Source of the DNA: Octopus sinensis
Taxonomy: Eukaryota
Reading direction: 5' to 3'
Assembly (NCBI RefSeq): GCF_006345805.1
Contig: NC_042998.1
Location: 156,612,001 to 156,676,000 of the forward strand
DNA: 64,000 nt
Part shown: in pieces, positions 4,331-63,119 of the stretch
Position numbering within the stretch: the stretch's first letter is position 1
How the letters are laid out: every line of letters starts with the position of its first letter
The notes under the pieces: generated by a model
The model's database searches: none
Seen by the model: the letters and a program-made list of their open reading frames with translations, nothing else
Told to the model about the DNA's origin: nothing
Program-made: the position numbers and the translations under genes

Positions 4331-4434
4331 TTTATAATTGTAAAAAATTTTAGATCCTATATCGTCACTGTATATAAAATTTTTATATTGAAACAAAGTG
4401 CGGAAATTCATTATGATGAATAATAGTCTATATG

Positions 4435-11230: not shown

Positions 11231-11271
11231 CACTATATATTTATATATGTATGTATATTTATATCTTTGTA

Positions 11272-11335
<64 letters not shown>

Positions 11336-11448
11336 CGTGTGTCTGTATGTAGGTATATATGTGTATATGTGCATGGTGCATATATGTGTATACATAATAT
11401 ATGTATATATGTATAATATGTATATATATGTTTGTGTATATATGTATA

Positions 11449-11497
<49 letters not shown>
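11231..11497. repeat. (TA)n/(TATG)n microsatellite
   Basis: Direct inspection. Confidence 0.95.
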
Positions 11498-11529
<32 letters not shown>

Positions 11530-11597
11530 CTAGTTTCAGCTCATGAGCTGTGGCCATGCTGGGGCACCGCCATTTGGTGTTGCTGCTTGGTTTTACT

Positions 11598-14500
11598 TCA
11601 CGAAAGCTTTTTAGCAACTGCCATTTGGTGCATGAGAGAGTTCGATGCAGCTGCCCTCATCTGCACCTCCTGCCGTGAAGTTGGTTCATCTGGGACACCT
11701 GACAGGAAGAGATCCAGTTCCATTTTAAAGACATCTGCATCCACCCCATGCAGGTCTCTCAGGTTCTTCGGGAGGATATTGAAGAGCTGTGGGCCTCGGA
11801 AGCCCAGGCTATCACAGTATCTTGTCCTACATCTTGATGGCAAATTTGGAGTCCTAGGCACCACGCAGTGGCGCCCAGTTCTAGCATTTGTGTGACTCTC
11901 GATGCCAAAGTTTGGGACACGTCCCTCCAGGATCTTCCAGATGTATATTATGGCATATCTTTCCTGCCTACGCTCCAAGGAATATAGTTTTAATCTCTTG
12001 AGTCTTTCCCAGTAGCTTACATTTTGCATAGAGGCTATCTTCTTCGTGTAGCTACGCTGGATCGCCTCGAGCTCTGTGATCAACTTGACACTGGATGGTG
12101 ACCATAACTGAGAGCAATAGTCAAAGTGGCTTAGGACAAGTGTCCTCCAGAGGACCATCATGGTTTCTTGTTCTCTTGTTCTAAAGGTTCTGAGAATCCA
12201 TCTGGCCAGTCGTCTACATTTCATTGCCAATTTAGCAACATGAACACGAAAGGTTGCGTCATCACTCATGTAAATACCCAGGTCACGCACTGATTGTGCC
12301 TCTGGGATTGCTATTCCTCCGGGTCCAGTGTATTCATTGGGTATTGCATTTAGTTTTGCATGCTGATCGTATAAAGCTTGAAACTTTTCAGCATTGAACT
12401 GCATGCTATTCTTTTCAGCCCCCTTGTATATTTCGTCCAGCTCACATTGCAGGTGCTTAGTGTCTTCAGGGTTCTGTATTGCCTGTGAAACTTTTGTATC
12501 ATCTGCATAACTTGTGATCGTGGCTCTCTGCGTGGCTGAGGGCATGTCTGAGAGGGCCATTATGAACAGTAGTGGTCCCAAAACAGTGCCCTGCGGAACA
12601 CCGCTCACTATTTGTGTGTTAATGGAATTGGCTGCTACCACCTGACTTCTATTCTTCAGAAAGTCATGAAGCCATTCTCCTAGTTTTCCAACTATGCCAA
12701 GATCACGCAGTTTGTGACATATCATTCCATGATCGACTTTATCAAAGGCCTTTGCGAAGTCGAGATATATGACTTCCACATTTGAGTGGTTGAGCAGTTG
12801 TTTCAGCACCCAGTCATAGTGCTGCAGGAGCTGAGTTAAGCAGCTTCTTCCTGGTTGGAAACCATGTTGGGTGTCAGGCAGCAAGTCATTTTCTTCAAGG
12901 AAGGTGATTAGTTTCCTTCTGACTATTTGTTCCAAGACCTTGCTGATGTGTGAGGTGAGAGAGATAGGTCTGTAGTTCTTGGCCTGTAGTTCTTGTAGTT
13001 CTTGCGTTTCCTTGGAGGTGGTTCCATTGCTCACAACTGCCTGTTTTCTGTCTTTTAGGAAGTTGTGTAGCCACTCTCCAAGTTTCCCGCCTATGCCGAG
13101 ACCACGCAGCTTGTGACAGATCATACCATGGTCGACTTTATCAAAGGCTTTTGCAAAGTCGAGATATATTACATCCACATTTGAGCCATTTAGTAGCTGT
13201 TTCAACACCCAGTCATAGTGTTGCAGGTGCTGTGTTAGGCAGCCTCTACCTGGTCGAAATCCATGCTGGGCGTCAGACAGTAAGTCGTTTTCTTCAAGGA
13301 ACATGATTAGTTTCTTACGGACTATTCGTTCCATGACTTTGCTGATGTGTGAGGTCAGAGAGATAGGCCTATAATTTTTAGCATCTGCTCTGCTACCTCC
13401 CTTATGGATAGGGCATATTACCCCCTCTTTCAGTTTGACTGGGAGCTTACCACTTGCAAGAAAGCTCTGAAAAAGAAGCTGTAGCGGTTTTGCAAGGGCT
13501 CGTTTGCACGATTTGAGAAGGATCGCTGGGAATCCATCAGGTCCAGCAGCTGAGTTTGTGTCAATCTCATCAATGGCTAGTGTGATATCATCATCTTCGA
13601 TGTTGATGTACTCAATTTTTGTCTCTTTGGCCGCTGGTAAAGTGGCAAAGAATTCTTCTGGGTTGTTTACTTGCCTGTGTCCTAGAGGTGTAGTGAACAC
13701 ACTTTGGAACTGTTCGTTCAGTATTTCACTTATTCTCGTGGGATTTCCTGTGAGAGAGCCATCTTTTTGGAAGAGAGGTCCTATTCTCTGGTGCACTGTG
13801 GCTGTCTCTTTGGCAAACTTAAAGAAAGCTTTAGGGTTTGATTTTATATTTTCTATTACCCAAGCTTCTTTATCTGCTCTCTCCTTTTCATGGGACTGAT
13901 GTAGACTTTTCTCAGTTTCCATTAGCATTCTTTCGAGCCGAGACTTCTCACCACTTTTGGTGTGCTTGCTCAGGCGGTTTGCAATCCTTGTCCGTCGTCT
14001 CATAAGAATCCTCCTTTCTCTAGGGATCCTGTTTTTGTTCTTGTGTGTGCTGGCCTTGCACATTGGGACATATTTGTCACATATGGCTTGTATTATGGAC
14101 ATGAAGTGTTTGTGTTTCATGTTTATGTCCGGTGTGGAGAGACATTCAGGCCAATCCTGTTTGAGGATCTCTTTCTCAATCGACTTCCAGTTGGCTTTAT
14201 GAAAGTTTAAGTTGGAGAGATGGTGGGTGCTTCGTATAGGCTGTGTGTCTGCAGGGGCTTTTGTTCCATACATAGACAGCTCTATTATGTTGTGATCCGA
14301 GATCATTGTCGGCATCACATTAACATTATGGATAATATCCATATTGTTTGTGAAGCAGAGATCCAGTATATTATCTGCCCTTGTTGGTTGCAGAACTATT
14401 TGCTCCATGAAAGAGGCATTTGTGAGATGGAGCAGGGACTCCACCTGTGCCTGCTGATGGTGTGTCATCCCTGGGAGCATCTGCCCCCCAGGCCATTCCA

Positions 14501-14804
14501 CATTGTGGAGGTTAAAGTCACCCATGAAGAATACACTGTTGTGCTGTTCAAGGTTGGTGAGGACTTCTCCTATTTTTGTTAGGCAGTCTTCAAACATGCC
14601 TGAGTGTTTTGGGGCATCTGGTGGGCGATATGTAGTGCATATGATGATATTCAGTTGTCTTATGTGTACAATTTGAGTTTCACATACTGAGTTTGAATAT
14701 GACAGCAGGACCTGGGGCGTGAGGTCATCTCGGATGTACATTGCAACTCCACCATGGCTCCTCCCTTTTCTATCTGTGCGTATGACTGTGTATTTCTGCA
14801 TCAC
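11598..14804 (-). CDS. LINE ORF2: APE endonuclease + reverse transcriptase, with ~125-aa internal RT duplication
   Basis: YRPP, GDFN, LDL, SDH (APE); [38 protein letters not shown] (RT). The true N-terminus (LLNVGGL...LTETHL) is in ORF 14770-15072 behind a frameshift. Confidence 0.85.
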
Positions 14805-15049
14805 CTATATCGGGTTCAAGATGCGTTTCTGTGAGTGCCATGCATATAGCCCGACTGCATGCCACAAGGTCTCTCAGGAATGAAATTTTCTTTTTACAGT
14901 TTCCGCGCAGCAGCCCTCCTACATTCAGTAGAAATATTTTTGTGGTGTGTGTGTTGGTGTTGGTGTCTGTGGTGGCCATCCTGCATCTGTTGGAGGTGGC
15001 CTTATGTGGTGGTAGTTCCAGCTTTGTGCTTGTAGCCAGGTCAGCTGCT

Positions 15050-15827
15050 GAACAATTTTTTGTGCCATGCACAAAAAAGATTGCTGTTCAGCTGCTGCCC
15101 TTCTCACATCTGGGTGAAGCTGGCCACCTGTTGGGTTTCCGCGCACCACATCTGCATACTGTCTTTCAGTAGTGGTCAGTGCGCTTTTTTCCCTTCTTTT
15201 AACTTTTTCTTTTTGTTTTTGTTCTCCCTGAGGGAGGGACCTCTGTCTCGTGTCCGTGCGGTTTTAGTAGGGCCTCCGATGTGCAAAGCGACAGTTTGCA
15301 CCTTCAACGCCGTACTAGCAGTCCCCCCTCAGGTAGAATTTGCAGGTGTTTCTTTCCCTGCCCTTACAGTTTTTGCTGGGGTCCCTCTGCTTTCTCTGGA
15401 CAGGGCTTCCTTTAGCCTTGATTCTGTCACCCTTTACCTCCTGCTTCCCATCAATTCCAGGGTGCCTTTCCTTTCTTGCGGCCATCGCACCTCTTTGGTC
15501 TTCAGTTGTGGTGTTGGAAGCTGGACATGTGTCATCGTTTCCCTGTGTTCCAGGCTTCTCCATTTGGCTCTGGATGCTTTTCTCATCCTTTTGGCCCTCC
15601 CTGCTGCCGTCACCTCCCAGGATGATGTCCAGGGTGTCCACATGTTGCCTGATTAGAGCGTACGAACGGATAACTTCTCTCTTCTTTCGCTCTATCTGGG
15701 CGGTGGTTCTCGAAAAATTGTTGCTTTTCAGCGCCGCAGCAATAATGTTGTTCGGCGAGTTGTCCTCAGCAATCCTCCAAGCACGGACGAACAATTGCAC
15801 CTCTCTCGCAGACCAGTTTCTTGCCAT
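15050..15827 (-). pseudogene. LINE ORF1 with Myb/SANT-trihelix-like N-terminus and CCCH finger; premature stop at 15315
   Basis: NWSAREVQLFVRAW...IAAALKSNNFSRTTAQIERKKREVIRSY; CKFYLRGDC*YGVEGANCRFAH. Downstream boundary approximate. Confidence 0.7.
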
Positions 15828-16009
15828 TTTCTTCTAGTGAAATATAGGAACAGAGAGAGAGAGATATGTATATATATATATATATATATGTATATATTTA
15901 AATATTTAAAAATTGAGGGAGATAAATTAATATTAATTTTAATATCAATTTAAAACCAGTAGTCCAGCATTCAAAAAATCTGAGGAGTCAGAGAAAATTC
16001 AAATATATG

Positions 16010-16183: not shown

Positions 16184-17596
<1,413 letters not shown>

Positions 17597-18971
17597 TTTT
17601 GATTGATTTTTGATTTTTCCAGATTCAGCTAATGAGCTGTGGCCATGCTGGGGCACTGCCATTTGGTTTGCTACACGGGTTTACCTCACGGATGCTTTTT
17701 AGCAAACGCCATCTGATGCATGAGAGAGTTCGATGCAGCTGCCCTCATCTGCACCTCCTGCCGTGAAGTTGGTTCATCCGGGACACCTGACAGGAAGAGA
17801 TCCAGTCCTACTTTAAAGACATCCGCATCTACACCATGCAGGTCCCTCAGGTTCTTCGGGAGGACATTGAAGAGCCGTGGGCCTCTGAAGCCCAGGCTAT
17901 CACAATATCTTGTCCTACATCTTGATGGCAAATTTGGAGTCCTTGGTACTACGCAGTGGCGTCCGGTTCTGGCGTTTATGTGACTCTCGATGCCAAAGTC
18001 TGGGACAAGACCTTCCAGGATCTTCCAGATATATATTATGGCATATCTTTCTCGCCTACGCTCCAGGGAATAGAGCTTTAATCTCTTGAGTCTCTCCCAG
18101 TAGCTCGTATGCTGCACAGAGGCTATCTTCTTCGTGTAGCTTCGTTGGATCGCCTCAAGTTCTGTGATCAACTTGACACTGGATGGTGACCATAGCTGAG
18201 AGCAATAGTCAAAGTGGCTTAGGACAAGTGTCTTCCAGAGGACCATCATGGTTTCTTGTTCTCTTCTTCTAAAGGTTCTAAGAATCCATCCAGCCAGCCG
18301 TCTGCATTTCATTGTCAGTTTAGCAACATGTACATGAAAGGTCTCGTCATCACTCATGTGAATACCCAGGTCACGCACTGATTGTGCCTCTGGGATTGCT
18401 ATTCCTCCGGGTCCAGTGTATTCATTGGGTATTGCATTCAGTTTTGCATGCTGATAGTATAAAGCTTGAAACTTTTCAGCATTGAACTGCATGCTATTCT
18501 TTTCAGCCCACTTGTATATTTCGTCCAGCTCACATTGCAGGTGCTTAGTGTCTTCAGGGTTCTGTATTGCCTGTGAAACTTTTGTATCATCTGCATAACT
18601 TGTGATCGTGGCTGAGGGCATGTCTAAGAGGGCCATTATGAACAGTAGTGGTCCCAAAACAGTGCCCTGTGGAACACCGCTCACTATTTGCGTGTTAATG
18701 GAAGTGGCCCCATTGGCTACTACCACCTGACTTCTATTCTTCAGAAAGTCGTGAAGCCATTCTCCTAATTTTCCAACTATGCCAAGATCATGCAGTTTGT
18801 GACATATCATTCCATGATCGACTTTATCGAAGGCCTTTGCGAAGTCGAGATATATGACTTCCACATTTGAGTGGTTGAGCAGTTGTTTCAGCACCCAGTC
18901 ATAGTGCTGCAGGAGCTGAGTTAAGCAGCTTCTTCCTGGTCGGAAACCATGTTGGGTGTCGGAAACCATGT
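17597..18971 (-). mobile_element. 5'-truncated copy of the CR1/L2-group LINE (open RT C-half, ORF 17686-18969)
   Basis: QHGF...YADD...PDEP; same 3' hairpin and TCAA-type tail. Confidence 0.92.
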
Positions 18972-19265
18972 CCTGTGTCTTGTTGATTCACAGACGAAGA
19001 ATAAAATTCACTTCAATTTCGGGAAGTAACACACGTGCGTTTTAACACGTGTATTCACGAGTATGTTCTAGTTGATAAATACTATATCAAAAGCGAAAAT
19101 ATTCTTCTCAAATACAGTGACTTCTTGTACTCTCACTTATATTCGCCTTGCAGACAATTTCGCTTCTGATAACATCGATCTCTGGAAGGACTTCTTTAAT
19201 ATTTAGGAGAGACACGTTAACACACTTGTTGTTAGTTCAGCGCCATCTTGATATTCAATCTGCTT

Positions 19266-26075: not shown

Positions 26076-26227
26076 TATATATATGTATGTATAATATATA
26101 TATGTATGATATATATATGTATGTAATATATATATATATGTATGTATATATGTATGTATATATATATATGTATGTATATATATATATATGTATGTACATA
26201 TATGTATATATATATATATGTATGTAT

Positions 26228-26268
<41 letters not shown>

Positions 26269-26442
26269 TATATGTATGTACATATATGTATGTATATATA
26301 TATATGTATGTACATATATGTATGTATATATATATTTGTATGTACATATATGTATGTATATATATATATATGCATATATATGTATGTATGTATATATATA
26401 TATATGCATATATATGTATGTATGTATATATATGTATGTATA
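25289..26442. repeat. compound (TATG)/(TA)n array
   Basis: Direct inspection. Confidence 0.95.
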
Positions 26443-29400
26443 TGATTGATTGATTGATTGATTCTAGTTTCAGCTTATGAGCTGTGGCCATGCTGGGGCA
26501 CCGCCATTTGGTGTTGCTACTTGGTTTCACTTCATGGAGGCTTTCTAGCAACTGCTATTTGGTGCATGAGAGAGTTCGATGCAGCTGCCCTCATCTGCCC
26601 CTCCTGCCGTGAAGTTGGTTCATCTGGGACACCTGACAGAAGAATTCCAGCTCCATTTAAAGACATCTGTGTCCACCCATGCAGGTCTCTCAGGTTCATC
26701 GGGAGGATATTGAAGAGCTGTGGGCCTCAGAAGCCCAGGCTATCACAGAATCTTGTCCTACATCATGATGACAAGTTTGGAGTCCTAGGCACCACGCAGT
26801 GGCGCCCAGTTCTGGCATTTGCGTAACTCTCGATGCCAAAGTTCAGGACACTTCCCTCCAGGATCTTCCAGATGTATATTATTGCATATCTTTCCCGCCT
26901 ACGCTGCAGGGAATATAATTTTAATCTCTTGAGTCTTTCCCAGTAGCTTACATTCTGCATAGAGGCTATCTTCTTCGTGTAGCTTCATTGGATCGCCTCA
27001 AGTTCTGTGATCAACTTGACACTGGATGGTGACCATAGCTGAGAGCAATAGTCAAAGTGACTTAGGACAAGTGTCTTCCAGAGGACCATCATGGTTTCTT
27101 GTTCTCTTGTTCCAAAGGTTCTAAGAATCCATCCAGCCAGCCGTCTGCATTTCATTGTCAGTTTAGCAACATGTACATGAAAGGTCGCGTCATCACTCAT
27201 GTGAATACCCAGGTCACGCACTGATTGTGCCTCTGGGATTGCAATCCCTCCGGGTCCAGTGTATTCCTGGGTATTGCATTCAGTTTTGCATGCTGATAGT
27301 ATAAAGCTTGAAACTTTTCAGCATTGAACTGCATGCTATTCTTTTCAGCCCACTTGTATATTTCGTCCAGCTCATAGTGCAGGGCCTAGTGTCTTCAGGG
27401 TTCTGTATTGCCTGTGAAACTTTTGTATCATCTGCATAACTTGTGATCGTGGCTCTCCACGTGGCTGAGGGCATGTCTGAGAGGGCCATTATGAACAGTA
27501 GTGGTCCCAAAACAGTGCCCTGTGGAACACCGCTCACTATTTGCGTGTTAATGGAAGTGGCCCCATTGGCTACTACCACCTGACTTCTATTCTTCAGAAA
27601 GTCGTGAAGCCATTCTCCTAATTTTCCAACTATGCCAAGATCATGCAGTTTGTGACATATCATTCCATGATCGACTTTATCGAAGGCCTTTGCGAAGTCG
27701 AGATATATGACTTCCACATTTGAGTGGTTGAGCAGTTGTTTCAGCACCCAGTCATAGTGCTGCAGGAGCTGAGTTAAGCAGCTTCTTCCTGGTCGGAAAC
27801 CATGTTGGGTGTCAGGCAGCAAGTCATTTTCTTCAAGGAAGGTGATTAGTTTCCTTCTGACCATTCGTTCCATGACCTTGCTGATGTGTGAGGTGAGAGA
27901 GATAGGTCTGTAGTTCTTGGCCTCCGCTCTGCTACCTCCTTTATGAATAGGGCATATTTTACCTTCCTTCAGTTTTCTTGGAAGTTTGCCAGCTGCAAGG
28001 AAGCTCTGAAAGAGGAACTGCAGTGGTCTTGGTAAAACTCTCTTACATACTTTTAGGAGGATTGCCGGGAATCCATCGGGGCCAATAGCTGAGTCTGTTT
28101 TCATTTCATCTATAGCCTTTATTACAATCGTCTTCCTTTATCGATGTAATTTACCGTCGCCGCCTCTGATTCTATATCGCAGTGGTAAAGAAGTCAGTTG
28201 GATTGCTGATTTGGAAATGCCCAAGGGGTGGAGTGAAAACACTCTTGAATTGTTCATTCAGTATTTCACTTCCCTCATTGGTTTTCCTGTGAGTGTGCCA
28301 TCCTTTTCAAGGAGTGGCCCTATCCTACAGTGCACCGTAGCTGTTTCTTTGGCATACCTGTAGAAAGCTCTGGGGTTAGTTTTTATGTTGTCTATAGCCC
28401 AGGCTTTTTTGTCTGCTCTTTCTTCTCATGGGAGAGTTGTAGACAATTTTCAATTTCCAACAGTTTTATTTTCAGGCGGGACTTTTCACTGCTTTCAATT
28501 TGTTTGTTTAGGCGATTTGAAATTTTTGTACGCCGTCTCATTAAATTTCTCTCTCTGGGGATTTTGTTCTTGTGTACAGTGGCCTTTCTCTCTGGGACAC
28601 ATTTGTAGCATATGGCTTGCATTACAGACATGAATTGTTGAAGTATCATGTCGATGTCTGGCGAGGAGAGACATTCAGGTAGTTTGTTTGAGGATCTCTT
28701 TCTCAATTTGTTTCCGTTTGCCTTATTGAAGTTCAGCTGGAAAGATTCTGAGGGTTTCTTGTAGGCTGCATGTCCGTGCTCTCTTTTGGCCCGTACATGG
28801 TCAGCTCTACCATGTTGTGATCCGAGAGTAGTGTCGGTGTCACTTTCACATTATGGATGAGATCCATATTATTGTGAAGCAGAGATCCAGTGTGTTACCC
28901 GCTCTGGTTGGTTGGAGTATTACTTGCTCCATGTACAGGTGTTGTTGGTGAGGTTCAGGAGGGACCTCGCCTGTCCTCGTTCACATCTTGTCATTCCTGG
29001 GAGAGAAAGGCCCTCGGGCCATCTGACATTCGGTAGATTGAAGTCTCCCATGAGAAGTACACTTATGTGTTGTTCTAATGTGGTTAGAACTTCTTTATTT
29101 TTAAAAGGCAGTCCTCAAACATGCCCATATGACTTGGGGCATCTGGAGGGCGATATGTAGCACACACAACTACATCAAGTTGCCTATGTGTACAATTAGT
29201 GTGTCACACACCGAGTTTGAGTATGACAAAAGGACCTGGGGTGTGAGGTCCCCACGGATGTACATAGCAACTCCTCCATGACTTCTTTCTTTCCTGTCGG
29301 TCCGTAGTACAACATACTGTGGTATGTGTAATTCCGCATCTGCTATGTCCGGTTTCAGATGCGTTCTGTGAGTGCTATGCATAAGGCTTGATTGCATGCG

Positions 29401-30140
29401 ACAAGTCTCTCAGGAACGGGACTTTTGTCCTGTTACTGTGTGTTAGTAGTCCTCTGATGTTCAGTAGGAGCATCGAGGTGAGGTGTATGCTGTTGCCGGC
29501 GGTGTCCACCCTGGGGCCATCTGCTGTGGCGGTCTTGTGAACCGTGGGCAGTTCCATCTGCCGAGCCTGAGCCTGATGGAGCCAGGTTAGCTGCTGTAAC
29601 ATCTTTTGTGCCATGCACAAAAAAGATTCCTGCTCAGCAGCTCCCTTTCAACAACACGTTGGTGGTTGTGGTACGCCACACATCTGCGTACCTCCGTTTG
29701 GGGCAGGTGATGCGTGGTCCATCCATTTCCTTTCGGTGGTTGGTTTCTGTGGCAGGGTCCCGGATGTGCAAAGCGGCAGCCTGCACCTTCCTCTCCATGC
29801 CGGCAGGCACCTTTCAGGTAGAACCTACATACCCGTGTGCGCTGCTTGTGTCCATCCTTTTTGGCATATGGATAGTTAGGTTTGCCTCTATCCCTGGCTG
29901 CCTTGCCCCTTGGCTTTGTCTGAGTTTTAGCTTCAGTTTTTCCTCTTTTTTTGGCCTCTTCATCTCCATGTCCATGGCTTTTGGTGCCGGTAGGAGCATC
30001 CGTAACTGGGTTCACCTCCCGGGCAGGCCTCTCGCTGGAGTTTACTTCCTGGGCGTCCACCAGGTGGGGGTGACCCTCCTCATCTGTGCCCGCGTCTCCA
30101 TCCTTGCCATCTTTACTTTGTTCGCGTTTTTCGCTGTTAA
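26443..30140 (-). mobile_element. near full-length, frameshifted CR1/L2-group LINE
   Basis: ORF1 CCCH (CRFYLKGACRHGEEGAGCRFAH), endonuclease fragments, RT ORF 27280-28104, (TCAA)n tail. Confidence 0.92.
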
Positions 30141-30171
30141 AAATATATATATATATGTATATATATGTATG

Positions 30172-30207
<36 letters not shown>

Positions 30208-30216
30208 ATTATATAT

Positions 30217-31062
30217 TGTTACGAAATCCACCTGCCGTCGCTCAAACTCTTTGGGAAAACCCGGGACCCTACTAAGACGAGCGACGACGATTTTCCGGCC
30301 CGATCGATCGGCGAACTCGCCACGGACCCAGGGAGAGAGAGAGAACTCGGTGGGGGGAACGCGGTAGCGAACCCGGCAACCGGCGACTGGAGATAACAAC
30401 AACAACCACATCAGGAAGAGAGACAAAGAGAGACGGTGGAAGGCAATTGGCTACATTTAACAACAGTTTATACAATTATTACAACATCAAATAAAATACA
30501 TGCAAGAAAGCAAGAAAACAACAAATCAAAGCATGCAGGTACAATATACAGTTCAGATCAATTAAGACAAATAACGTTCACATTAACAATACAGTTCAAA
30601 GTTCTTTAAAGTCTACATTAGAGTCTTTCTCCTTCTTTCTTTGCTTTCCGTAATTCTGTAACAGTTCTTTTCACATATCAAACATAAATAAACATACCGT
30701 TACGAGCTACCACAATAGCCAAGTGCCCTCATACCGTAGTCCCTCTCTCTCGCTCTTTAATCCTATCTGTCTGTCTTCCTCTACGCTGCCATTCTCTCGC
30801 TTGTCAGCTCCTCAGATTCCCTGTCTGTCCTTCTCTACTGACCGCCCTCATATCAGTCCCGTCTCTGCTAGAGCTGCCGGCCGACTGTCTCGACAGGCTC
30901 ACATCTCCTGCTTTTTAAAGGGCTGTTTCCTCGAACTTTCTTTCACCTGAAAAGGGTCGAAGGTCTCCCCAGAACTCATCAATCCACCTGAATCTGACAG
31001 GACAAAGGATTTACTCACAAAAGTCGGTCGCAAGTAATGTCCCTGAATTGACCCCCACAACA
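30217..31062. mobile_element. probable solo LTR (~846 bp)
   Basis: Termini TGTT...AACA, ATAT on both flanks (TSD uninformative within TA repeat), noncoding and CpG-rich. Confidence 0.65.
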
Positions 31063-31124
31063 ATATGTATATATATATATATATTATATATATATAATAT
31101 ATATATATATATGTATATATGTAT

Positions 31125-32160
31125 ATATTGAGTAATTGAATGAATTATCTTATTAGGATAATTCGAAAGATAACCGATACCTGGGTAGCAAATTCACATC
31201 AGAAAGAACACGGTTGAAGCTACGTCCCTAGGGCATAGACTACGTGTCTTCGTGCAGAAATTTGTATGTTTATTTTAAAATTATAAGTATATGAAAGAAT
31301 GCAGTTGAACAACTAGTTAACAAATATCCTTTATTTTCGACATACGTTTCGAAGGCTGCATATTCCTAATTCCGACGGAATAAGGAGTACATTATGCAGA
31401 TTTGTCATCAGGAAAATCAAGGAACTTATGTCGACATCAAAATGCACAAAAAACTTTTAGCTGACCACTCTTAAGGAGCCCATGGCGATAATGAGTGTCT
31501 CTTTATAATGAGTGACGTCAGAGTGGCTGAATGTAGAAGAATCTAGAAGTTTCTAAAGGTTTAAGAGTTCAAACGAAGTAGGAGGAGGGAGGCATAAGAA
31601 TGGCAAGGTGAGAGAGTGCAGGTCAAAAGAATGGTGGGTTTAAATGATTTCTTTTGTGAATGAGTGCCTGTGTGTGTGACTGTATATAACTGTCTTAATG
31701 TGTGTGTGTGTGTGTGTCTGAATGCGTGATTGTGTTTGTGGATGGGTAGATGTCAGAAAACTGACAGCTGTGAGTTGAAAGGTCTGTATCTGTGTGTTCG
31801 ATTATGTTTACTGTAGGGAAAGGAAAGTAGATAGCGAAAGGGAGAAAGAATCGGGCGAGGTGAGAGGCAACGCAAGAATGGATAGTAGTAATTGGGAATA
31901 TAAGAAAATCTTTTTGACTATTGGGGTGAAATATAGCAAAAATTTTTTTGGAAATCGAGGGTTATCTATATTAGTCACTATTTATATGAATGAAAGGTGT
32001 GTCTTTTCCAGTGTAAACACCTATAGGATCTTTCGACGATTGTGCTTATTAAAGGGCCTTTGGCGAACAAAATATGAAAAAGTTCGGAATTACAGATGCC
32101 ACAAAATTTTCTGCCTTTATCAAACAGGAAGGACACCGACAAAATGGACCATTCGAGCTT
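31125..32160 (-). mobile_element. Penelope-like element 3' end
   Basis: Minus strand reads KGRKFCGICNSELFHIL...YRCLHWKRH (PLE endonuclease C-terminal Cys/His motif), followed by UTR with a hammerhead. Confidence 0.75.
31327..31423 (-). ncRNA. type I hammerhead ribozyme motif, long stem II
   Basis: tccttgattttc-CTGATGA-[54 nt incl. ctgcata/tatgcag]-GAAA-cgtatg-TC-gaaaataaagga; stem I pairs 11 of 12; base of stem II pairs poorly. Confidence 0.75.
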
Positions 32161-32525
32161 GAACGTAGTGTTATTGATTATATTATACTTTAGTTTGATT
32201 TTAATTATTACTTACTACAAATAATTCAATTGTTATTATTATCTCTAATTTTTATTGTTAAAGTGAAAGTATCTGGCATAAAATAGAGAAATGTTTTCGA
32301 TTCGCTTTTTTAACACATAATACTGAAATAGTAGAGAAGATATGATATTGCTATGGGCTCGCCCTAGGCAAGAAGTTGAACATTTTTTTTTGTCCATGAA
32401 ACTACATGGACCCTAAGTAAGGCAGGTGTAAACTTTGAATGAAATTGGTTGTGTAGTTCTCAAGTTTTAGGGAATCGTAGTGGAGAAGTTGTGATATTGC
32501 TGTGGGCTCGCCCTAGGCAAAAAGA
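32161..32525 (-). mobile_element. Helitron-like fragment homologous to 10959-11230
   Basis: 'tttgaatgaaattggttgtgtagttctcaagtttt' is the reverse complement of ~11016-11052; local duplication of 'tgatattgct.tgggctcgccctaggcaa'. Confidence 0.6.
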
Positions 32526-33092
32526 GTGGAGGCCAAGAACTACAGACCTATCTCTCTGACCTCACACATCAGCAAGGTCATGGAACGAATAGTCAGAAGG
32601 AAACTAATCACCTTCCTTGAAGAAAATGACTTGCTGCCTGACACCCAACATGGTTTCCGACCAGGAAGAAGCTGCTTAACTCAGCTCCTACAACACTATG
32701 ACTGGGTGCTGAAACGACTGCTCAAACACTCAAATGTGGAAGTGATATATCTCGACTTTGCAAAGGCCTTTGATAAAGTCGATCATGGAATGCTATGTCA
32801 CAAACTGCGTGATCTTGGCATTGTTGGAAAATTGGGAGAATGGCTTCATGACTTTCTGAAGGATAGAAGTCAGGTGGTAGTAGCCAATGGGGCCACCTCC
32901 AATAACACGCAAATAGTGAGCGGTGTTCCACAAGGCACTGTTTTGGGATCACTACTGTTTATAACGGCCCTCTCAGACATGCCCTCAGCCACGCAGAGAG
33001 CCACGATCACAAGTTATGCAGATGATACAAAAGTTTCACAGGCAATACAGAACCCGTAAGACACTATGCACCTGCAATGTGAGCTGGACAAA
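32526..33092 (+). mobile_element. CR1/L2-group LINE RT fragment
   Basis: [12 protein letters not shown]...YADDTK. Confidence 0.9.
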
Positions 33093-34818
33093 CTTTTGTA
33101 TGCCGTCTCATTAGAATTTTCCTCTCTCTGGGGATTTTGTTCTTGTGTACAGTGGCCTTTCTCTCTGGGACACATTTGTAACATATGGCTTGCATTACAG
33201 ACATGAATTGTTGAAGTTGCATGTCGATGTCTGGCGAGGATAGACATTCAGGCCAGTTTTGTTTGAGGATCTCTTTCTCAATTTGTTTCCAGTTTGCCTC
33301 ATGGAAGTTCAAGCTGGAAAGATTCTGAGAGTTCTTGTAGGCTGCATGTCCATGCTTTTCGTTGGCCCGACATGGTCAGCTCTACCATGTTGTGATCCGA
33401 GAGTAGTGTCAGTGTCACTTTCACATTATGGATGAGATCCATATTATGTGAAGCAGAGATCCAGTGTGTTACCTGCCCTGGTTGGTTGGAGTATTACTTG
33501 CTCCATGTACAGGGTGTTGATGAGGTTCAGGAGGGACCTCGCCTGTCCTCGTTCACATCGTGTCATTCCTGGGGAGAGAAAGAAAGGCCTCGGGCCATCT
33601 GACATTGGGTAGATTGAAGTCTCCCATAAGAAGTAAACTTATGTGTTGTTCTAATGTGACTAGAACTTCTATTTTTATAAGGCAGTCTTCAAACTTGCCT
33701 ACATGGTTTGGGGCATCTGGAGGGCGATATGTAGCACATAGACCAAGTTGCCTCATATGTACAATTAGTGTGTCACACACTGAATTTGGGTATGACAAAA
33801 GGACCTGGGGTGTGAGGTCCTCGCGGATGTACATAGCAACTCGTCCACGACTCCTTTCTTTTCTGTCGGTCTGTAGTACAACATACTTTGGTATGTGTAT
33901 TTCCACATCTGCTATGTCTGGTTTCAGGTGTGTTTCCCTAAGTGCTATGCATAAGGCTTGATTGCATGCAACAAGGTCTCTCAAGAAAGGGATTTTTGTC
34001 CTGTTACTGAGTGTCAGCAGTCCTCTGATGTTCAGTAAGAGCATTGAGGTGTTGTGTGTGCTGTTGCCGGTGGCGTCCACCTTGGGTCTATATGCTTTGG
34101 CGGTCTTGTATATTGTGGATAGTCCCACATGTGAGTTTGAGTTTGATGGAGCCAGGTTAGCTGCTGTACAAACTTTTGTGCCATGCTCAAAGAAGATTCT
34201 TGTTCAGCAGCTGCCCTTTCAATAACATGTTTGTGGTTTGTAGCACGCACTACATCTGCATTCCTCCGTTTTGGGGCAGGTGGTGCGTGGTCCATTCCTT
34301 TTCCTTTTGGTTGTTGGTTTCTGCCCTGTTTCATATTTATGTGGCAGGGTCTTTGATGTGCAAAACGGCAGCCTGCACCTTCCTCTCCATGCCAACAGAC
34401 ACCTTTCAGGTAGAATTTACACATTTGTGTGCGCTGTCTCTTTCTATCCTTTTTGGTATATGGACAGTCAGGTTTGCTTCTATCCTTGGCTGTTTCATCT
34501 CTTGGTTTTGTTTGAGTTTTAGTTTTTCCTTCTTTGGCTGTTTCATCTTTTGTTTTTGTTTTTCCTCCTTTACTTCTTTTTTGGCTCTTTCATCTCCCTG
34601 GTTTTGGCTTTTAGTGCTGGTAGGGACACTTGCACTTGGGTTTACTCCCCAGGCAGGTTTCTCACTTGAATCTTCTTTGTTGTCCTGGGTGTCTACCAAG
34701 TGGGGGTGACATCTTTCATCAGCACCCGTGCCTCCATCCTTGCCATCTTTACTTTGTTTGTTGTCAAAGATGGCATCAAGTGTGCCGATGTGGGATCTTA
34801 TGATGCATAGGAGCGTAT
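33093..34818 (-). mobile_element. CR1/L2-group LINE 5' half (ORF1 CCCH + endonuclease)
   Basis: [22 protein letters not shown]; LLNIRGL, ETHL, YRPP, GDFN. Confidence 0.9.
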
Positions 34819-35671: not shown

Positions 35672-35703
<32 letters not shown>

Positions 35704-35710
35704 GTAATAT
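34819..35710. repeat. compound (TA)n array
   Basis: Direct inspection. Confidence 0.95.
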
Positions 35711-35768
35711 AAAACATTATTGGTGAATGAAGAAATGGAGCTGAACGCAGATTGAACAGAAATCGTTT

Positions 35769-35865
35769 TATTTCATTCTACTCGTGTTTCGAAAGGCACA
35801 AATTACCAAAATCGATTTGGTGAATAATGGGACCATATTGTGTCTTTCTCTTCAGGAAGAAAATA
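35769..35865 (-). ncRNA. type I hammerhead ribozyme motif (left arm)
   Basis: tattttcttc-CTGAAGA-gaaagacacaa...ttgtgcctttc-GAAA-cacgag-TA-gaatgaaata. Confidence 0.75.
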
Positions 35866-38219
35866 GGAAATCCGTTGAAAAAAACAAAAACAGAACAGAG
35901 GCGGAGCAAAAAACAAATCGAACTATGCTCCTAAGAGCCCATGGCGAAAACTGTTTATCAGTGTGTTGTGGAAGCGGTGACTGAAGAATTAACGGGTCAG
36001 GCATCGGTCAATCATGTGGGTTGGGGTGTGGGTGTTCTTTGTGACCGAGAATAAAGTTCTGACTATTTAAGGAATATTGGATGTTTTATAAGGGGCGAGA
36101 AAAAATCTACTTAGAGACGTGTGTGTATACTGTTCTATATATGTGTGTGTTGGCGTAGGGGTAGAAAAATTTTTTGTGTACGTGTGTGCGTTTTGATCGT
36201 TCGGCTGTCAGTGGCTACTGCCGCGAGAACCGTTGGGTGGCAGAAAAAAATATATAATTATATGTTTTATGTTGTGTGGTGTTCATCTAAGCCTGCCTTG
36301 TCAAGGAAACCCCCCGCTGTGAAAAAACCAAGCCCGCGTTTGTCTAACAGGAGTAATTCCCCTTGCAGTGGTTAATCGTAGATATCTTAAAGGCTATTTC
36401 AGAATTTGTTACCAAGGGCTATGGGGCCGGTATTATTTATAAACGCTATTTAAAAGCCAGATAAGTGTAACGCCGCCAATGGGGGCATCGAAAAGCCGAC
36501 TGTAAAAGCCGGTTTACCATCCGGCCTCTGGCAAACAAAATATGGAAGGAAGAGTTCGGAGACACAAAGGTTGCACTGCCTTCTGCCCCTATTCAAATGG
36601 GAGGGCCACCGACAAAATTGACCATTCCAGCCTGTAGCTTAAGTTCGTATCCTTCAGTCGCCATATTAGCTTACTGAGACATGGCGCTTGTTCATGTCCC
36701 GAAAAGTTGCGTAATGGTTGGAGACACGCAAAGACAATCTTGAGGAGGATGAGGCCCCTACATAAGTGAAGACATCTGAGTCCGTGTAAACCTTGCATTG
36801 GTAGACGGCGTTTTGATCTTGGAGTTCGCCGACGTGAATCTTATTCTGCTAGGATTAGTTTCTGAAATTAGAACTGCGTTCCTGTCACTATATTCGTTCC
36901 GAGACCTGCAGCCGCTTACTACTCTATTTTCCACTACGTCACTATTAACTATAGGAATAACCCCTGATTCTCCACTATCTATCAGGGTGTTGTCATTGCT
37001 ACTGCCCGTGGTGCGCTATTGCGGGAAATGATGCTGGGGATGCTATTGGGGCTCTCTACCCTACTCCCATTGTTACCGTCAACACAACACCCCTATTTAT
37101 AACTATACCCTAGTGGGTACTCCCTGGCTGGAGCTGAGATTATGTGTCACTGTACTGGCTCTCATATCATTATTACTACTATAATTATTCCTCCTGAGCA
37201 TTAAACCGGGAGCGGAAGAGGCTGTGCCTCCGGAAAAAGTGATAGGGTCTTAGTAAGTAGCCTATTATTATGGGAGGCGATTATCTGGGCGAGGTTTTTA
37301 GTGTTGGAGAAAGCTATCCTAACTTTATGCGAGGGTAACCGTGGAGTAATATTTGGATTTCTGGGGAAGTTATTGGCGATGGCTTGTCTAAACATGAGGG
37401 GGAGGTTAGTTCTAATCTGCTTACCAAAGGGGATTACAAACCATATATGCTTATTCCTATCAGTGTGATGGGTCGGGACGCCAGCTCTCGCGTTCGGGTG
37501 GGTGATTCTCGGATGAATAACGGGTCTTGGGTTAGTGTAAGACCTCCCGGACCGATAATTATCCTTGTAAACGGGCTTTTACAGTCGGCTTTTCGATGCC
37601 CCCATTGGCGGCGTTACACTTATCTGGCTTTTAAATAGCGTTTATAAATAATACCGGCACCCATAGCCCTTGGTAACAAATTCTGAAATAGCCTTAAGAT
37701 ATCTACGATTAACACTGCAAGGGGAATTACTCCTGTTAGACAAACGGGGCTTGGTTTTTTCACAGCGGGGGGTTTCCTTGACAAGGCAGGCCTTAGATGA
37801 ACCACACACACACATAAAAATAATATATATATATTTTTTTTTGCCACCCAACGGTTCTCGCGGCAGTAGCCACTGACAGCCGAACGATCAAACGCACACA
37901 CGTACACAAAAAAATGTTTTCTACCCCTACGCCAACACACACATATATAGAACAGTATACACACACGTCTCTAAGTAGATTTTTTCTCGCCCCTTTATAA
38001 AACATCCAAATTCCTTAAATAGTCAGAACTTTATTCTCTCGGTCACAAAGAACACCCACACCCCTCACCCACATGATTGACCGATGCCTGACCCGTTAAA
38101 TTCTTCAGCCACCGCTTCTCAACATACACTGATAAACAGTTTCGCCATGGGCTCTTAGGAGCATAGTTCGATTGTTTTTGCTCCGCCTCTGTTTGTTTTT
38201 GTTTTTCCAACGGATTTCC

Positions 38220-38313
38220 TATTTTCTTCCTGAAGAGAAAGACACAATATGGTCCCATTATTCAATCGGATTTTGGTAATTTGTGCCTTTCGAAACACGT
38301 GTAGAATGAAATA
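38220..38313 (+). ncRNA. type I hammerhead ribozyme motif (right arm)
   Basis: tattttcttc-CTGAAGA-gaaagacacaa...ttgtgcctttc-GAAA-CACGTG-TA-gaatgaaata; palindromic stem III, GUA triplet. Confidence 0.8.
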
Positions 38314-38449
38314 AAACGATTTTGTTCAATCTGCGTTCAGCTCCATTTCTTCAATTCACCAATAATGTTTTAATTTCAATTATCCGCACCAACGCACGGT
38401 TGCAACACCATATGGTTGTACCTCCAACCGTGCTGTTTACTGCTGTGAT

Positions 38450-38944
38450 TATATATATGTATATATATATTATATATGTATATATTATATATATATGTAT
38501 ATATATATGTATATATTATATATATGTATATATATATGTATATATTATATATATATGTATATATTATATATGTATATTATATATACGTATATATTATATA
38601 TATGTATATATATATATATATATATGTATATATTATATATATATATGTATATATATATGTATATGTATATATTTATATATAGTATATATTTATTATATAT
38701 TATATATTTATATGTATGTATATATTATCTATATATGTAATATTTATATATATGTATATATATATGTATGTACATATATATATATATAGTATATTATTTA
38801 TATATGTATATATATAATATGTATGTATTATATATATGTATGTATATATATATATGTATGTATATAATATATGTATGTATATATATATATGTATGTATAT
38901 ATATATGTATGTATATATATATGTATGTATATATATATATATGT
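38450..38944. repeat. compound (TA)n array
   Basis: Direct inspection. Confidence 0.95.
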
Positions 38945-42342: not shown

Positions 42343-42442
42343 NNNNNNNNNNNNNNNNNNNNNNNNNNNNNNNNNNNNNNNNNNNNNNNNNNNNNNNNNN
42401 NNNNNNNNNNNNNNNNNNNNNNNNNNNNNNNNNNNNNNNNNN
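42343..42442. other. assembly gap (100 N)
   Basis: Run of N. Confidence 1.
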
Positions 42443-43890
42443 AACTACAGACCTATCTCTCTCACCTCACACATCAGCAAGGTCATGGAACGAATAGTCA
42501 GAAGGAAACTAATCACCTTCCTTGAAGAAAATGACTTGCTGCCTGACACCCAACATGGTTTCCGACCAGGAAGAAGCTGCTTAACTCAGCTCCTACAACA
42601 CTATGACTGGGTGCTGAAACAACTGCTCAACCAACTCAATGTGGAAGTCATATATCTCGACTTCGCAAAGGCCTTTGATAAAGTCGATCATGGAATGATA
42701 TGTCACAAACTGCGTGATCCTGGCATAGTTGGAAAATTGGGAGAATGGCTTCATAACTTTCGGAAGAATAGAAGTCAGGTGGTAGCAAATAATGAGCGGT
42801 GTTCCGCAGGGCACTGTTTTGGGACCACTACTGTTCATAATGGCCCTCTCAGACATGCCCTCAGCCACGCAGAGAGCCACGATACAAGTTATGCAGATGA
42901 TACAAAAGTTTCACAGGCAATACAGAACCCTGAGGACACTAAGCACCTGCAATGTGAGCTGGACGAAATATACAAGTGGGCTGAAAAGAATAGCATGCAG
43001 TTCAATGCTGAAAAGTTTCAAGCTTTATACTATCAGCATGCAAAACTGAATGCAATGCCCAATGAATACACTGGACCCGGAGGGATTGCAATCCCAGAGG
43101 CACAATCAGTGCGTGACCTGGGTATTCACATGAGTGATGACGCAACCTTTCATGTACATGTTGCTAAAAATGGCAATGAAATGTAGACGGCTGGCTGATG
43201 GATTCTTAGAACCTTTAGAACAAGAGAACAGAAACCATGATGGTCCTCTGGAAGACACTTGTCCTAAGCCACTTTGACTATTGCTCTCAGCTATGGTCAC
43301 CATCCAGTGTGAAGTTGATCACAGAACTTGAGGCGATCCAACGAAGCTACACAAAGAAGATAGCCTCTGTGCAGCATATGAGCAACTGGGAAAGACTCAA
43401 GAGATTAAAGCTCTATTCCCTGGAGCGTAGGCGAGAAAGATATGCCATAATATATATCTGGAAGATCCTGGAAGGACTTGTCCCAAACTTTGGCATCGAG
43501 AGTCACACAAATGCCAGAACCGGGTGCCACTGCGTAGTACCAAGGACTCCAAATTTGCCATCTAGATGTAGGACAAGATACTGTGATAGCCTGGGCTTCA
43601 GAGGCCCACTGCTCTTCAATATCCTCCCGAAGTACCTGAGGGACCTGCATGGTGTAGATGCGGATGTCTTTAAAGTAGGACTGGATTGCTTCCTGTCAGG
43701 TGTCCCGGATGAACTAACTTCACGGCAGGAGGTGCAGATGAGGGCAGCTGCATCGAACTCTCTCATGCATCAGATGGCGTTTGCTAAAAAGCATCCGTGA
43801 GGTAAAATCGTGTAGCAAACCAAATGGCAGTGCCCCAGCATGCCCACAGCTCATTAGCTGAAACTGAAAAATCAAAATCATATCGAAATC
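42443..43890 (+). mobile_element. CR1/L2-group LINE 3' half, frameshifted
   Basis: NYRPISLTS through MAFAKKHP*, 3' hairpin cagct-catt-agctg, AATCA tail. Confidence 0.92.
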
Positions 43891-43913
43891 ATTATATGTA
43901 TATTATATATGAA

Positions 43914-43947
<34 letters not shown>

Positions 43948-44060
43948 ATATATATATATATAGATATATATATATAATATATATATTATAAATATATATA
44001 TATGTACATATATATTATATAATATATGTATGTATAGATATATAATATATATATATGTAT

Positions 44061-44091
<31 letters not shown>

Positions 44092-44137
44092 GTAATATAT
44101 ATATATATACATACATGAATATATATATATATATATA

Positions 44138-44381
44138 CGGTGTCCTCTAGCCTGCAAAGGGAGATCATTCCCCAAAGAAGCGGATGCCACATACGGACCT
44201 AGGTTTCAAGGTATTTGCCTATTATCAACGCATGGCAGGCACCGCTCCTCGACGAATAACTGTCTGTGCAGGCTATATTTAAAGATTTTCACAGTAAATA
44301 CATTACTGATGTAAAATCCGTTCGAAAGCAATAAATATATATGTATATATATGTGTATATATAATGTATATATGTATGTAT

Positions 44382-48146: not shown

Positions 48147-48267
48147 CATGCTAGCGGACGCTAAATGATGATGATATGTATATACTATTTGCTATATGTA
48201 TTATATATAAATTATTATTTAATTGAATGCAACGCATCTATTTCCAAGTATGTATATATATATATAT

Positions 48268-49140
48268 CAGGGGTAGAGGTAGACCCAGGAAGACATGGGA
48301 TGAGGTAGTCAAGCCTGACCTCAGAGCGTTGGGCCTCACTGAGGCAATGGCGAAGGACCGAGATATCTGGAGATGTGCTGTGACTACTAAGACCCAGGAT
48401 GCTTCCGGCACCAGTTCCGCATAGCCCCTGCCTATTCAAAGTACCTTGGATCCCGGAACATCTCACTGTGCTTGAGGAGACCTGTTGAGTCAAGTGCATG
48501 TACATGAACATCGAACCAAATATCAATGGAAATAGTAGTTGTGATACCTGTGCCGGTGGCACATAAAAAGCACCATCCGAACGTGGCCGTTGCCAGTGCT
48601 GTCTCGACTGGTTTCTGTGCCGGTGGCACATAAAAAGCACCATCCGAACGTGACCGATGCCAACCCCACCTCGAATGGCTTCTGTGCCGGTGGCACATAA
48701 AAAGCACCATCTGAACGTGGCCGATGCCAGCCCCGCGTTGACTGGCTTCTGTGCCGGTGGCACATAAAAAGCACCATTCGAACGTGGCCGATGCCAGCCC
48801 TGCCTCGACTGGCTTCTGTGCCGGTGGCACATAAAAAGCACCATCCGAAGATGGCCGATGCCAGCACCACCTCGACTGGCTTCTGTGCTGGTGGCACATA
48901 AAAAGCACCAACCGATCATGGCCGATGCTAGACCCCTCTGGCACCTGTACAGGTGGCACGTTAAAAGCACCCACTACACTCGGGGAGTGGTTGGCATTAG
49001 GAAGGGCATCCAGCTGTAGAAACACTGCCAGATCAGACTGGAGCCTGTAGCAGCCCCTGGCTCCCCAGACCCCGGTTGAACCGTCCAACCCGTGCTAGCG
49101 CAGAAAACGGATGTTAAACGATGATGATGATGATGATGAT
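48268..49140 (+). mobile_element. RTE LINE 3' end with 67-bp tandem array and (GAT)n tail
   Basis: RGRGRPRKTWDEVVKPDL...DRDIWR (RTE C-terminus). Confidence 0.85.
48549..48972 (+). repeat. 67-bp tandem repeat, about six units plus a partial
   Basis: Unit starts at 48549, 48616, 48683, 48750, 48817, 48884 and 48946. Confidence 0.92.
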
Positions 49141-50675: not shown

Positions 50676-50804
50676 AAAAATTATGCATCTGCTGGCAAGA
50701 TGTCAAGTGCCCAATGGATACTTGATGAAAAAGAGTTTGCTAGTAAATTCAATGAGAAGACAAAATTATTAATCCTAAACACTCCAAGCAACCCTGTTGG
50801 GAAA
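50676..50804 (+). CDS. kynurenine aminotransferase (KYAT1/KYAT3-like) internal exon
   Basis: ag|KNYASAGKMSSAQWILDEKEFASKFNEKTKLLILNTPSNPVGK|gtaagt; class I aminotransferase NxPxNPxG motif. Confidence 0.92.
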
Positions 50805-51077
50805 GTAAGTTTTTTTGGGGTCTGTCTGTCTATATCATTATATGTAAAATATCAGGTAGCGAGGTTTTTTTTAGAAATTTCACTACCAGTGGCCTAGCAT
50901 GTGGCCTAGTCAATAGACAACATATTCTCAATATAAAATAGCGTACATTTAAACACAAGAGAAACTGCCTTCAACATGCAGCTTTACATGCTAGAAGTAG
51001 TCAAAACGACCAAAACCACATTTAAGAGCAATTCTGAAGGGAATGAAAAATAAAAACTTTTACCTTGTTATTTTATT

Positions 51078-51151
51078 ACAGTAATACCTAGGTTTCAAAT
51101 AGTTTTAGCAAATAAGATAATTTGCTAGTCAAAATTCTCATCAGTGACCGT
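51078..51151 (-). ncRNA. hammerhead ribozyme motif (left arm, intact GUA)
   Basis: acggtca-CTGATGA-gaat...tagcaaat-tatctt-atttgcta...attt-GAAA-CCTAGG-TA-ttactgt. Confidence 0.75.
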
Positions 51152-51429
51152 GCCATAACACTAACATATAGTTAAGAGACAAATAACATGTATCTCATCG
51201 TTATACATTATAATTTTTCAAATCCACCGCGCAAGCACAGTTTCAGTCGGCAGTAAATAAATAAATGCCGAACTAATCTTCTGAAAATTGCTAAAACCAT
51301 AAGATTAGTTCAGCGTTTATTTATTTACTGCTGACTGAAACTGTTCTTGCACGGTGAATTTGAAAAATTATAACGTATAACAATGAGACGCATGTTATTT
51401 GTCTCTTAACTATATGTTAGTGTTATGGC

Positions 51430-51503
51430 ACAGTCACTGATGAGAATTTCGCCTAGCAAATTATTTTATTTGCTAAAACTATTTGAAACCTTGGTGTTAC
51501 TGT
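51430..51503 (+). ncRNA. hammerhead ribozyme motif (right arm, triplet mutated to GUG)
   Basis: acagtca-CTGATGA-...-GAAA-CCTTGG-TG-ttactgt. Confidence 0.7.
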
Positions 51504-51984
51504 AATAAAATAACAAGGTAAAAGTTTTTATTTTTCATTCCTTTCAGAATTGCTCTTAAATGTGGTTTTGGTCGTTTTGACTACTTCTTCTAGCATGTAA
51601 AGCTGCCTGTTGAAGGCAGTTTCTCTTGTGTTTAAATGTACACTATTTTATTTCATTAAATGGTTAATTTTAATGGCATTTCCATTGTAACCATCTTAAT
51701 ACTAAGTAGTGTGCTACTTCTGGCAGCATTGTATTTTCAATAAACAGGTTTACCTTTATGCCACATAAAACTGGTGTTATTGTTTTTGTACCATAATATA
51801 ACAGTTCAACAAATACACATTGACTAAATAAGTAACAAACTTAAAAGTATGTTCAATGATTAATATGCTAGACTAAACCAGACTAATTCCTTAAAGGTGG
51901 TGCCCAAGCATGACTGAAACCCAGCAACCAATAAAATACTGTATGAATAAAAGGATATACATACCATTCTTAACATTTATTAGT

Positions 51985-63088: not shown

Positions 63089-63119
<31 letters not shown>

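Follow-up and report, generated by a model that had tools for sequence, protein, structure and literature searches.

Mobile Elements and Hammerhead Cores at the Locus

The window analyzed here comprises 64,000 nucleotides of the Octopus sinensis genome (NC_042998.1, positions 156,612,001 to 156,676,000 of the forward strand). It contains copies of three repeat families, F1, F2, and F3, all of which carry type I hammerhead ribozyme motifs (Table 1). The F1 copy consists of the end of the ORF, a 3' UTR of ~560 nt, the hammerhead, and a tail, and terminates at (TA)n. The first arm of the F2 insertion encodes, in frameshifted form, an RT thumb and a GIY-YIG endonuclease (about 37568-36446), followed by a ~600-nt 3' UTR and the hammerhead. 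Inverted 5' arms, as seen in the window, are typical of Penelope-like elements (PLEs).

Table 1. Hammerhead-bearing insertions of the window and their cores; stem II spans are counted between CUGANGA and GAAA.
Feature	Position	Strand	Stem II span (nt)	Remarks
5'-truncated copy of Hydra-clade PLE family F1	31116..32176	-		94-96% to near-full-length F1 in L092
F1 hammerhead core	31339-31411	-	54	CUGAUGA 31411-31405, stem II span 31404-31351, GAAA, CGUAUG, UC
5'-truncated copy of Hydra-clade PLE family F2	35676..37568	-		95.5% to full-length L105
F2 hammerhead core	35779-35855	-	58	Stem III CACGAG (palindrome broken)
Inverted second arm, same F2 insertion	37567..38450	+		Longer tail, terminates at (TA)n
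F2 hammerhead core	38230-38303	+	55	Stem II span 38237-38291, stem III CACGUG, GUA cut site
F3 arm of two-armed insertion	50834..51301	-		~460-nt non-coding retrozyme-like repeat, intronic
F3 hammerhead core	51085-51144	-	41	G-U at stem II base, CCUAGG
F3 inverted second arm	51301..51651	+
F3 hammerhead core	51437-51496	+	41	CCUUGG, G at cleavage position

The five type I cores were found inside the intervals proposed by an earlier, sequence-only reading of the window. That reading was correct in describing stem II as long, although the real range is 41-58 nt rather than 41-55 nt. The three stem III hexamers that it listed (CGUAUG, CACGUG, and CCUAGG) are present; however, the F1 family form is CAUAUG, and one F2 copy (CACGAG) and one F3 copy (CCUUGG) carry other hexamers. 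In the F1 copy, which it had flagged for a mispair at the base of stem II, C10.1/C11.1 was indeed seen. This copy has two private changes, one at position 10.1 (31404), where it carries C and 39 of 40 intact aligned F1 copies carry G, and one in stem III, where it has CGUAUG against CAUAUG in 36 of the 40. The mispaired base at 31404 is private decay, and the copy, with a predicted cut after 31339, is a dead fragment; its arm folds at z -3.2. Only one of the five copies, the F2 core at 38230-38303(+), is undamaged, because the other four have suffered a G at the cleavage position, stem I mismatches, or other changes. Both F3 copies have a stem I mismatch adjoining the core, and the one on the forward strand is predicted to be inactive.

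Several other features were observed in the window. Many nested fragments of one APE-RT LINE family (72-98% alike) lie at 11234-15830, 17333-18990, 26175-30450, 32520-34590, and 42440-44140 and are broken by (TA)n runs of considerable length; the stretch at 11598-14804(-) forms a frame of 1068 codons, part of which is internally duplicated. A ~67-nt tandem repeat occupies 48215-49094, with dispersed relatives at 4447-4575 and 5655-5817. The 484-codon ORF at 62472-63926(-), with a PHD-like cysteine region and polyglutamine, is probably the ORF1 of a LINE, upstream of RT fragments at 59217-60452(-).

Genome-Wide Occurrence of the Long-Arm Motif

The 2.72-Gb genome was searched with the pattern CUGANGAG-N32-62-YGAAAC-N4-GUH, which gave 19,571 matches, compared with 200 for the reversed control. 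This excess, together with the membership of the three motifs in repeat families, indicates that the motifs of the window did not arise by chance. A short-span version (N6-31) gave 2,202 matches against 107 for its control; the ratio of long to short spans is valid solely for motifs with G10.1 and a C....G hexamer, and the short-span count leaves out those short Hydra motifs whose stem III is 7 nt long or that have an extra base. First-look candidates, which are not copy numbers, amounted to 1574 for F1, 1176 for F2, and 1459 for F3.

The fetched loci fell into 36 clusters at 85% identity, 30 of which had stem II spans of 39-80 nt; 16 of these 30 consist of one sequence each, and a few could be decayed motifs or chance matches. 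Besides F1 and F2, the clusters F1b, K3, K6, and K26 lie downstream of Hydra ORFs, and K4 and K14 are tandem units of ~400-440 nt. The core CUGANGA...GAAA...UH was intact in 33/33 F2, 40/42 F1, and 26/37 F3 copies. At the base of stem II (G10.1-C11.1), G-C was present in 39/40 F1 and 33/33 F2 copies, and among 26 F3 copies the pair was G-U in 19 and G-C in 4. Both the ribozyme and the kinds of element that carry it are known; the class is a real, abundant, and clade-specific variant of that ribozyme. Two hammerheads with a stem II of 77-80 nt (L007:2162-2260(-) and L091:2135-2230(+)) were predicted to branch into two hairpins.

F1 and F2 as Host Elements

F1 and F2 belong to the Hydra clade of Penelope-like retrotransposons. 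Full-length copies of the form pLTR-ORF-pLTR were found for F2 (L105), F1 (L092, near-full-length), and K6 (L216). In L105, an 899-codon ORF at 1931-4627 lies between hammerheads at 1603 and 5224, and L092 is built likewise. F1 and F2 thus have a single ORF, RT followed by a C-terminal GIY-YIG, between direct terminal repeats. Their proteins contain SDKT (the Hydra DKT motif) and the RW motif as IRWL/IRGL and are without CCHH; these motifs were set against published Hydra proteins by eye. A Pfam search of the F1 and F2 proteins gave no RT match. Of the 7,994 candidates scored, 399 proved to be relatives with a length of about 700 aa, the closest being P0001, P0029, P0003, and P0004. An identity with Naiad was considered and rejected, the endonuclease being C-terminal.

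The sequence-only reading had placed the three motifs of the window in unrelated elements, which does not hold for two of them. The F1 and F2 ORFs are 61% identical across 805 aligned positions, their DNA is 67% identical over the 286 nt of ribozyme and tail, and their stem II arms can be aligned. On the protein identity and the DNA identity across the ribozyme, F1 and F2 are sisters. F2 includes young intact copies with 99% identity.

The CxCX5C linker before the endonuclease is absent in F1, F1b, and F2 and present in K3 and K6. Since these clade-mates retain the linker, its absence is a secondary loss. The linker has been associated with (TA)n targeting; although it is missing from the three families (L105:4220-4400, L091, and L092; window 36446-37568(-)), (TA)n was present at the copy ends in 30/30 F1 loci and 28/30 F2 loci. 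Both F2 (L346-L375) and F1 (L001-L030) showed two fixed classes of 3' end, at about +60-70 and +210-226 from the cut site, and some insertions of these families consist solely of sequence downstream of the cut site.

The Non-Coding Repeat F3

The F3 unit is 460 nt long and contains one type I hammerhead; three tandem units are present in L083, and many copies with the 460-nt period exceed one unit. In these respects F3 appears to fit the class of non-LTR retrozymes (PMC7229834). No DNA similarity was found between F3 and the 3' UTRs of F1 and F2. When 60 F3 loci were searched with the Hydra profile, matches were obtained in 3, none of them an ORF continuous with F3; we read these matches as neighbouring insertions, those at L088 being F2 sequence. 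F3 likely rides on Hydra PLEs by borrowing their enzymes, and a tie to a particular helper is something that we infer.

Between +200 and the upstream cut site, every 40 nt held 7-9 of the 5' ends of F3 copies. Past this site, one end was found in the interval from -40 to -1, compared with 7 in 0-40, and 4 of the 42 copies in this small, selected sample read through. The drop hints that the 5' end of the template was made by cleavage. F3 copies of exactly unit length seemed to pile up when the reference contained a deleted unit, an artefact that disappeared with the corrected unit. The 3' ends (L083 and L438-L474) cluster near +160 and +245.

The F3 insertion of the window reaches within ~30 nt of the donor site of an exon with AG/GT ends at 50676-50804(+). 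The 43 codons of this exon gave a weak match to aminotransferase class I/II (E 0.047), and the exon presumably resembles kynurenine aminotransferase.

Comparison with Known Hammerheads and Search Models

PLE hammerheads, the palindromic stem III, retrozymes, and one plant element with a similar span are already known. The sequence-only reading had also suggested a structural subclass that length-limited searches would miss, and this was borne out with the descriptor of Cervera 2014, which cannot match the motifs, and with Rfam, which gave no hit at gathering score. The descriptor, as given in PMC4209133, allows a stem II of 3-7 bp, a loop of 3-10 nt, and a stem III of 2 nt; with a span limit near 26 nt and no more than 2 nt in stem III, it misses the long-arm motifs. 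With Rfam RF00163 (Hammerhead_1), the best score was 14.8 bits at 38224-38309, against a cut-off of 34, and the scan of the other two motif regions gave no hammerhead match. The whole-window scan, which was the sole cover of the copy at 35779, gave just microsatellite-driven miRNA artefacts among the matches listed. Standard models underestimate hammerhead counts in such genomes by about 19,000.

The Hydra-clade PLE hammerheads of Craig et al. 2021 (PMC8557442) share with the present motifs the type I fold in the 3' terminal repeat and the palindromic stem III, and their elements share the (TA)n targets, the DKT motif, and a GIY-YIG at the C terminus with no CCHH; this genome also contains the core of the published Hydra-1_oBim hammerhead. 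In contrast, the published spans are about 12-26 nt, as counted from File S2 of that paper, whereas those found here are 39-80 nt. The motifs found here are also without the extra base before G10.1 seen in the published set, have a stem III insert fixed at 6 nt, and lie in elements with longer 3' UTRs, F1 and F2 being without the CxCX5C linker. The same File S2 contains PLE-X1_sMoe from Selaginella, flagged as non-canonical, with a 9-bp stem II and a 35-nt loop (about 54 nt). This is a single endonuclease-less plant element, for which File S2 describes neither a class nor covariation or copy number.

The minimal PLE hammerheads (PMC4209133) have in common with the present motifs the core, the position in terminal repeats, the palindromic helix III, and the proposed cleavage as dimers. 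Helix II was already called larger than usual there, at 7-8 bp; however, hairpin II is short and simple in the 56 motifs that Cervera and de la Pena 2014 (PMC4209133) listed, unlike the long arms described here. F3 and K4 resemble animal non-LTR retrozymes (PMC7229834; bioRxiv 10.64898/2026.07.22.740005) in having 400-460-nt non-coding units, one type I hammerhead per unit, and tandem or more-than-unit copies. They differ in their long bulged stem II, which is without the canonical loop 1/loop 2 signature, and in being known here from genome DNA. Our search of the literature found no published description of such a long-arm class, and the descriptors of Perreault 2011 may allow longer loops.

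Folding and Covariation of Stem II

The arm, longer than usual by a factor of two to four, is composed of a 9-12-bp proximal helix with mismatches, a variable A/U-rich internal loop, and a 4-8-bp distal hairpin. Compared with shuffles, the arms gave a median z of -2.4, and 18 of 30 clusters fell below -2, whereas the two flanks did so in 0/30 and 3/30. When the outer 6 nt were removed, the median z was -1.7, compared with about +0.2 to +0.3 for the flanks (30 clusters, Wilcoxon p<1e-4).

Covariation across genomic copies, which the sequence-only reading had named as a check, was present in two groups. In the F1/F2 group (22 sequences), two-sided changes occurred at 8 of the 12 pairs of the 12-bp proximal helix, and the distal AUUC/GAAU hairpin was conserved in sequence rather than covarying. 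In the K3/K6/K10/K19 group (10 sequences), such changes were seen at 6/9 proximal and 2/7 distal pairs. When the alignment was slid as a control, the paired fraction dropped from 84-89% to 27-53% in both groups. The number of double-change pairs is modestly above that of shuffles, 34 and 25 of 500 of which reach it with relatedness ignored, and the first arm structure was drawn from the same sequences as were used for covariation. Covariation across families extends over the first 9-12 bp of the arm, far more than catalysis requires. Stems I and II both covary, as in type I hammerheads. The distal hairpins are near-invariant inside a group and different between groups, and a span of 54-60 nt is retained between families whose RT is 47% identical.

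We found 43 F1/F2-type copies with shortened arms. Nearly all carry distinct microhomology deletions, and none has been amplified as a subfamily; since few copies are masters, this lack of an amplified deletion family is weak evidence. No sequence motif common to all arms was found by k-mer sharing in the 30 clusters, the best 4-mer being GUAA (14/30 versus 5.6 expected), and there was no footprint of A-to-I editing in the arm (A>G 8/1753, T>C 15/2241, p 0.41).

Origin of the Long Arm

In an RT tree (FastTree, 40 rows), F1, F2, K6, and K3 formed one clade with a support of 0.93, sister to the Argonauta protein P0029 plus P0001 and apart from all short-arm elements. These are the four autonomous long-arm families for which RT sequence was available, and among families with such sequence the long arm is confined to their clade; this placement rests on the RT tree, the endonuclease-region tree having been set aside because of long-branch warnings. 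Of 79 metagenomic Hydra loci, 38 had a hammerhead, with spans of 10-39 nt, and two elements reached 39 nt. Inspection of 26 of the other 41 loci yielded a few more hammerheads of up to 39 nt and none longer. Because the query favoured typical Hydra elements, the long-arm branch of other hosts lies outside the metagenomic set.

A separate Hydra family of the same genome has a 3' UTR of 1,030-1,140 nt yet a stem II span of 10 nt (28/30 loci), indicating that the long arm is not a by-product of general expansion.

Stem III Palindromes and Cleavage

The inner four bases of stem III were palindromic in 23 of 30 clusters, compared with 11% expected from the make-up of the columns, and nine different palindromes were found. 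The calculated energies were -6 to -14 kcal/mol for the stem III duplex and +2 to +3 for the hairpin of a monomer, in which the inner pair cannot form; the intermolecular form is favoured by 9-16 kcal/mol. These palindromes support the known dimer model (PMC4209133). For type I hammerheads of invertebrates in which stem III has 2 bp, cleavage of monomers has been reported (PMC7761336).

PLE hammerheads cut poorly in vitro (PMC4209133). For an Anolis PLE, PMC11167929 describes a hammerhead that cuts solely when the protein of the element is added, insertion without need for cleavage, and no reads ending at the site. The 5' junctions of 68 F2 copies likewise showed no peak at the cut site and were spread from -2 to about +15; by hand count, 17/68 lay at -2 to +1 and the others extended to +15. 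The poor cutting in vitro, the insertion of the Anolis element, and the F2 junctions would all be expected if cleavage by the motifs were rare or absent in vivo and they were retained as structural RNA for packaging or priming. We consider this very unlikely, since the core is intact in nearly every F1 and F2 copy (40/42 and 33/33) and across the 30 clusters, and since the F3 5' ends, albeit from a small and selected sample, continue evenly to the upstream cut site and then drop. Our preferred reading retains cleavage: the hammerheads would cut the RNA of the element as dimers paired via the stem III palindrome.

Possible Function of the Long Arm

PLE hammerheads cut poorly alone, and one case depends on the protein of the element. 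According to the explanation that we tentatively prefer, to which our analysis gives rather less than an even chance, the type I hammerheads, which lie in terminal repeats of a single divergent Hydra-clade PLE branch and in non-coding repeats that likely ride on it, would cut as dimers, and their long stem II would be a selected folded arm by which the RT-endonuclease protein of the element holds the RNA. We infer dimer cleavage, activity in vivo, and protein binding. A handle is favoured by the protein-assisted Anolis ribozyme described in PMC11167929 together with the group-specific invariant hairpins, because near-invariant distal hairpins that differ between groups are as expected of a family-specific protein site. 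Against it, covariation would be equally expected of a tolerated insertion folding away from the core, and Hydra elements and tandem repeats with short arms both do well in this genome.

Nearly as likely as a protein handle is that the arm is such a tolerated insertion, which arose once in the branch and has no job of its own, selection merely keeping its fold off the core. Hammerheads need just 1-4 bp of stem II (PMC3088659), the spans in the genome range from 10 to 80 nt, and the same elements show other expansions, namely an 899-aa ORF with N/S-rich inserts and 3' UTRs of 560-1500 nt. The lack of a motif common to the arms and the two metagenomic elements at 39 nt point in the same direction. 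However, the Hydra family with a 3' UTR of ~1,050-1,100 nt has a 10-nt stem II, so the length does not reflect an effect acting on the whole genome; families at 47% RT identity have arms of similar architecture and length; and deletions occur, as in the 43 shortened copies, without having spread.

A further explanation is that the internal loop or bulge of the arm replaces loop II and docks on stem I, thereby speeding cleavage. Contacts between stems I and II are the normal accelerator of hammerheads and can be pseudoknots (PMC3088659), and in three F3-like clusters a bulge on the 5' side of stem II could base-pair with the strand 7-13 nt upstream of the core. In contrast, a general pseudoknot between stems I and II was looked for in the 30 clusters and not found: in a test that covered Watson-Crick complementarity, three of four geometries gave no more complementarity than swapped partners, and the fourth was marginal (p 0.03, uncorrected). 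Moreover, the F1/F2 and K3/K6 helix runs for 9-12 bp before the large loop, past the usual docking height. Docking is an unlikely account of the arm, though less so than the absence of cleavage considered above. The three F3-like clusters (window 51427-51453(+), L140, and L165) have GGCG, CAGG, and GGC as the complementary bases, a possible short pseudoknot limited to the F3-like group.

Returning to the protein handle, a more specific proposal, which we regard as somewhat doubtful, is that stem II would be a family-specific handle gating cleavage and the stem III palindrome a family code for dimer pairing. If true, the about 20,000 motifs would provide dozens of natural variants for studying the roles of PLE hammerheads and the recruitment of helpers by retrozymes. 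A long, covarying, family-specific arm, young intact copies, short-arm controls, and riders together constitute a ready test system.

Short-arm families of the same genome were also observed. The Hydra family at L405-L434 is young and abundant, with intact ~727-codon ORFs, a 3' UTR of ~1,050 nt, and a very small hammerhead whose stem II span is 10 nt and whose stem III is 7 nt. Short-arm tandem retrozyme-like families (L219, L225, and L220) have either a ~350-nt unit with a 14-nt span and CUCGAG or a ~550-nt unit with a 26-nt span and CGUACG.
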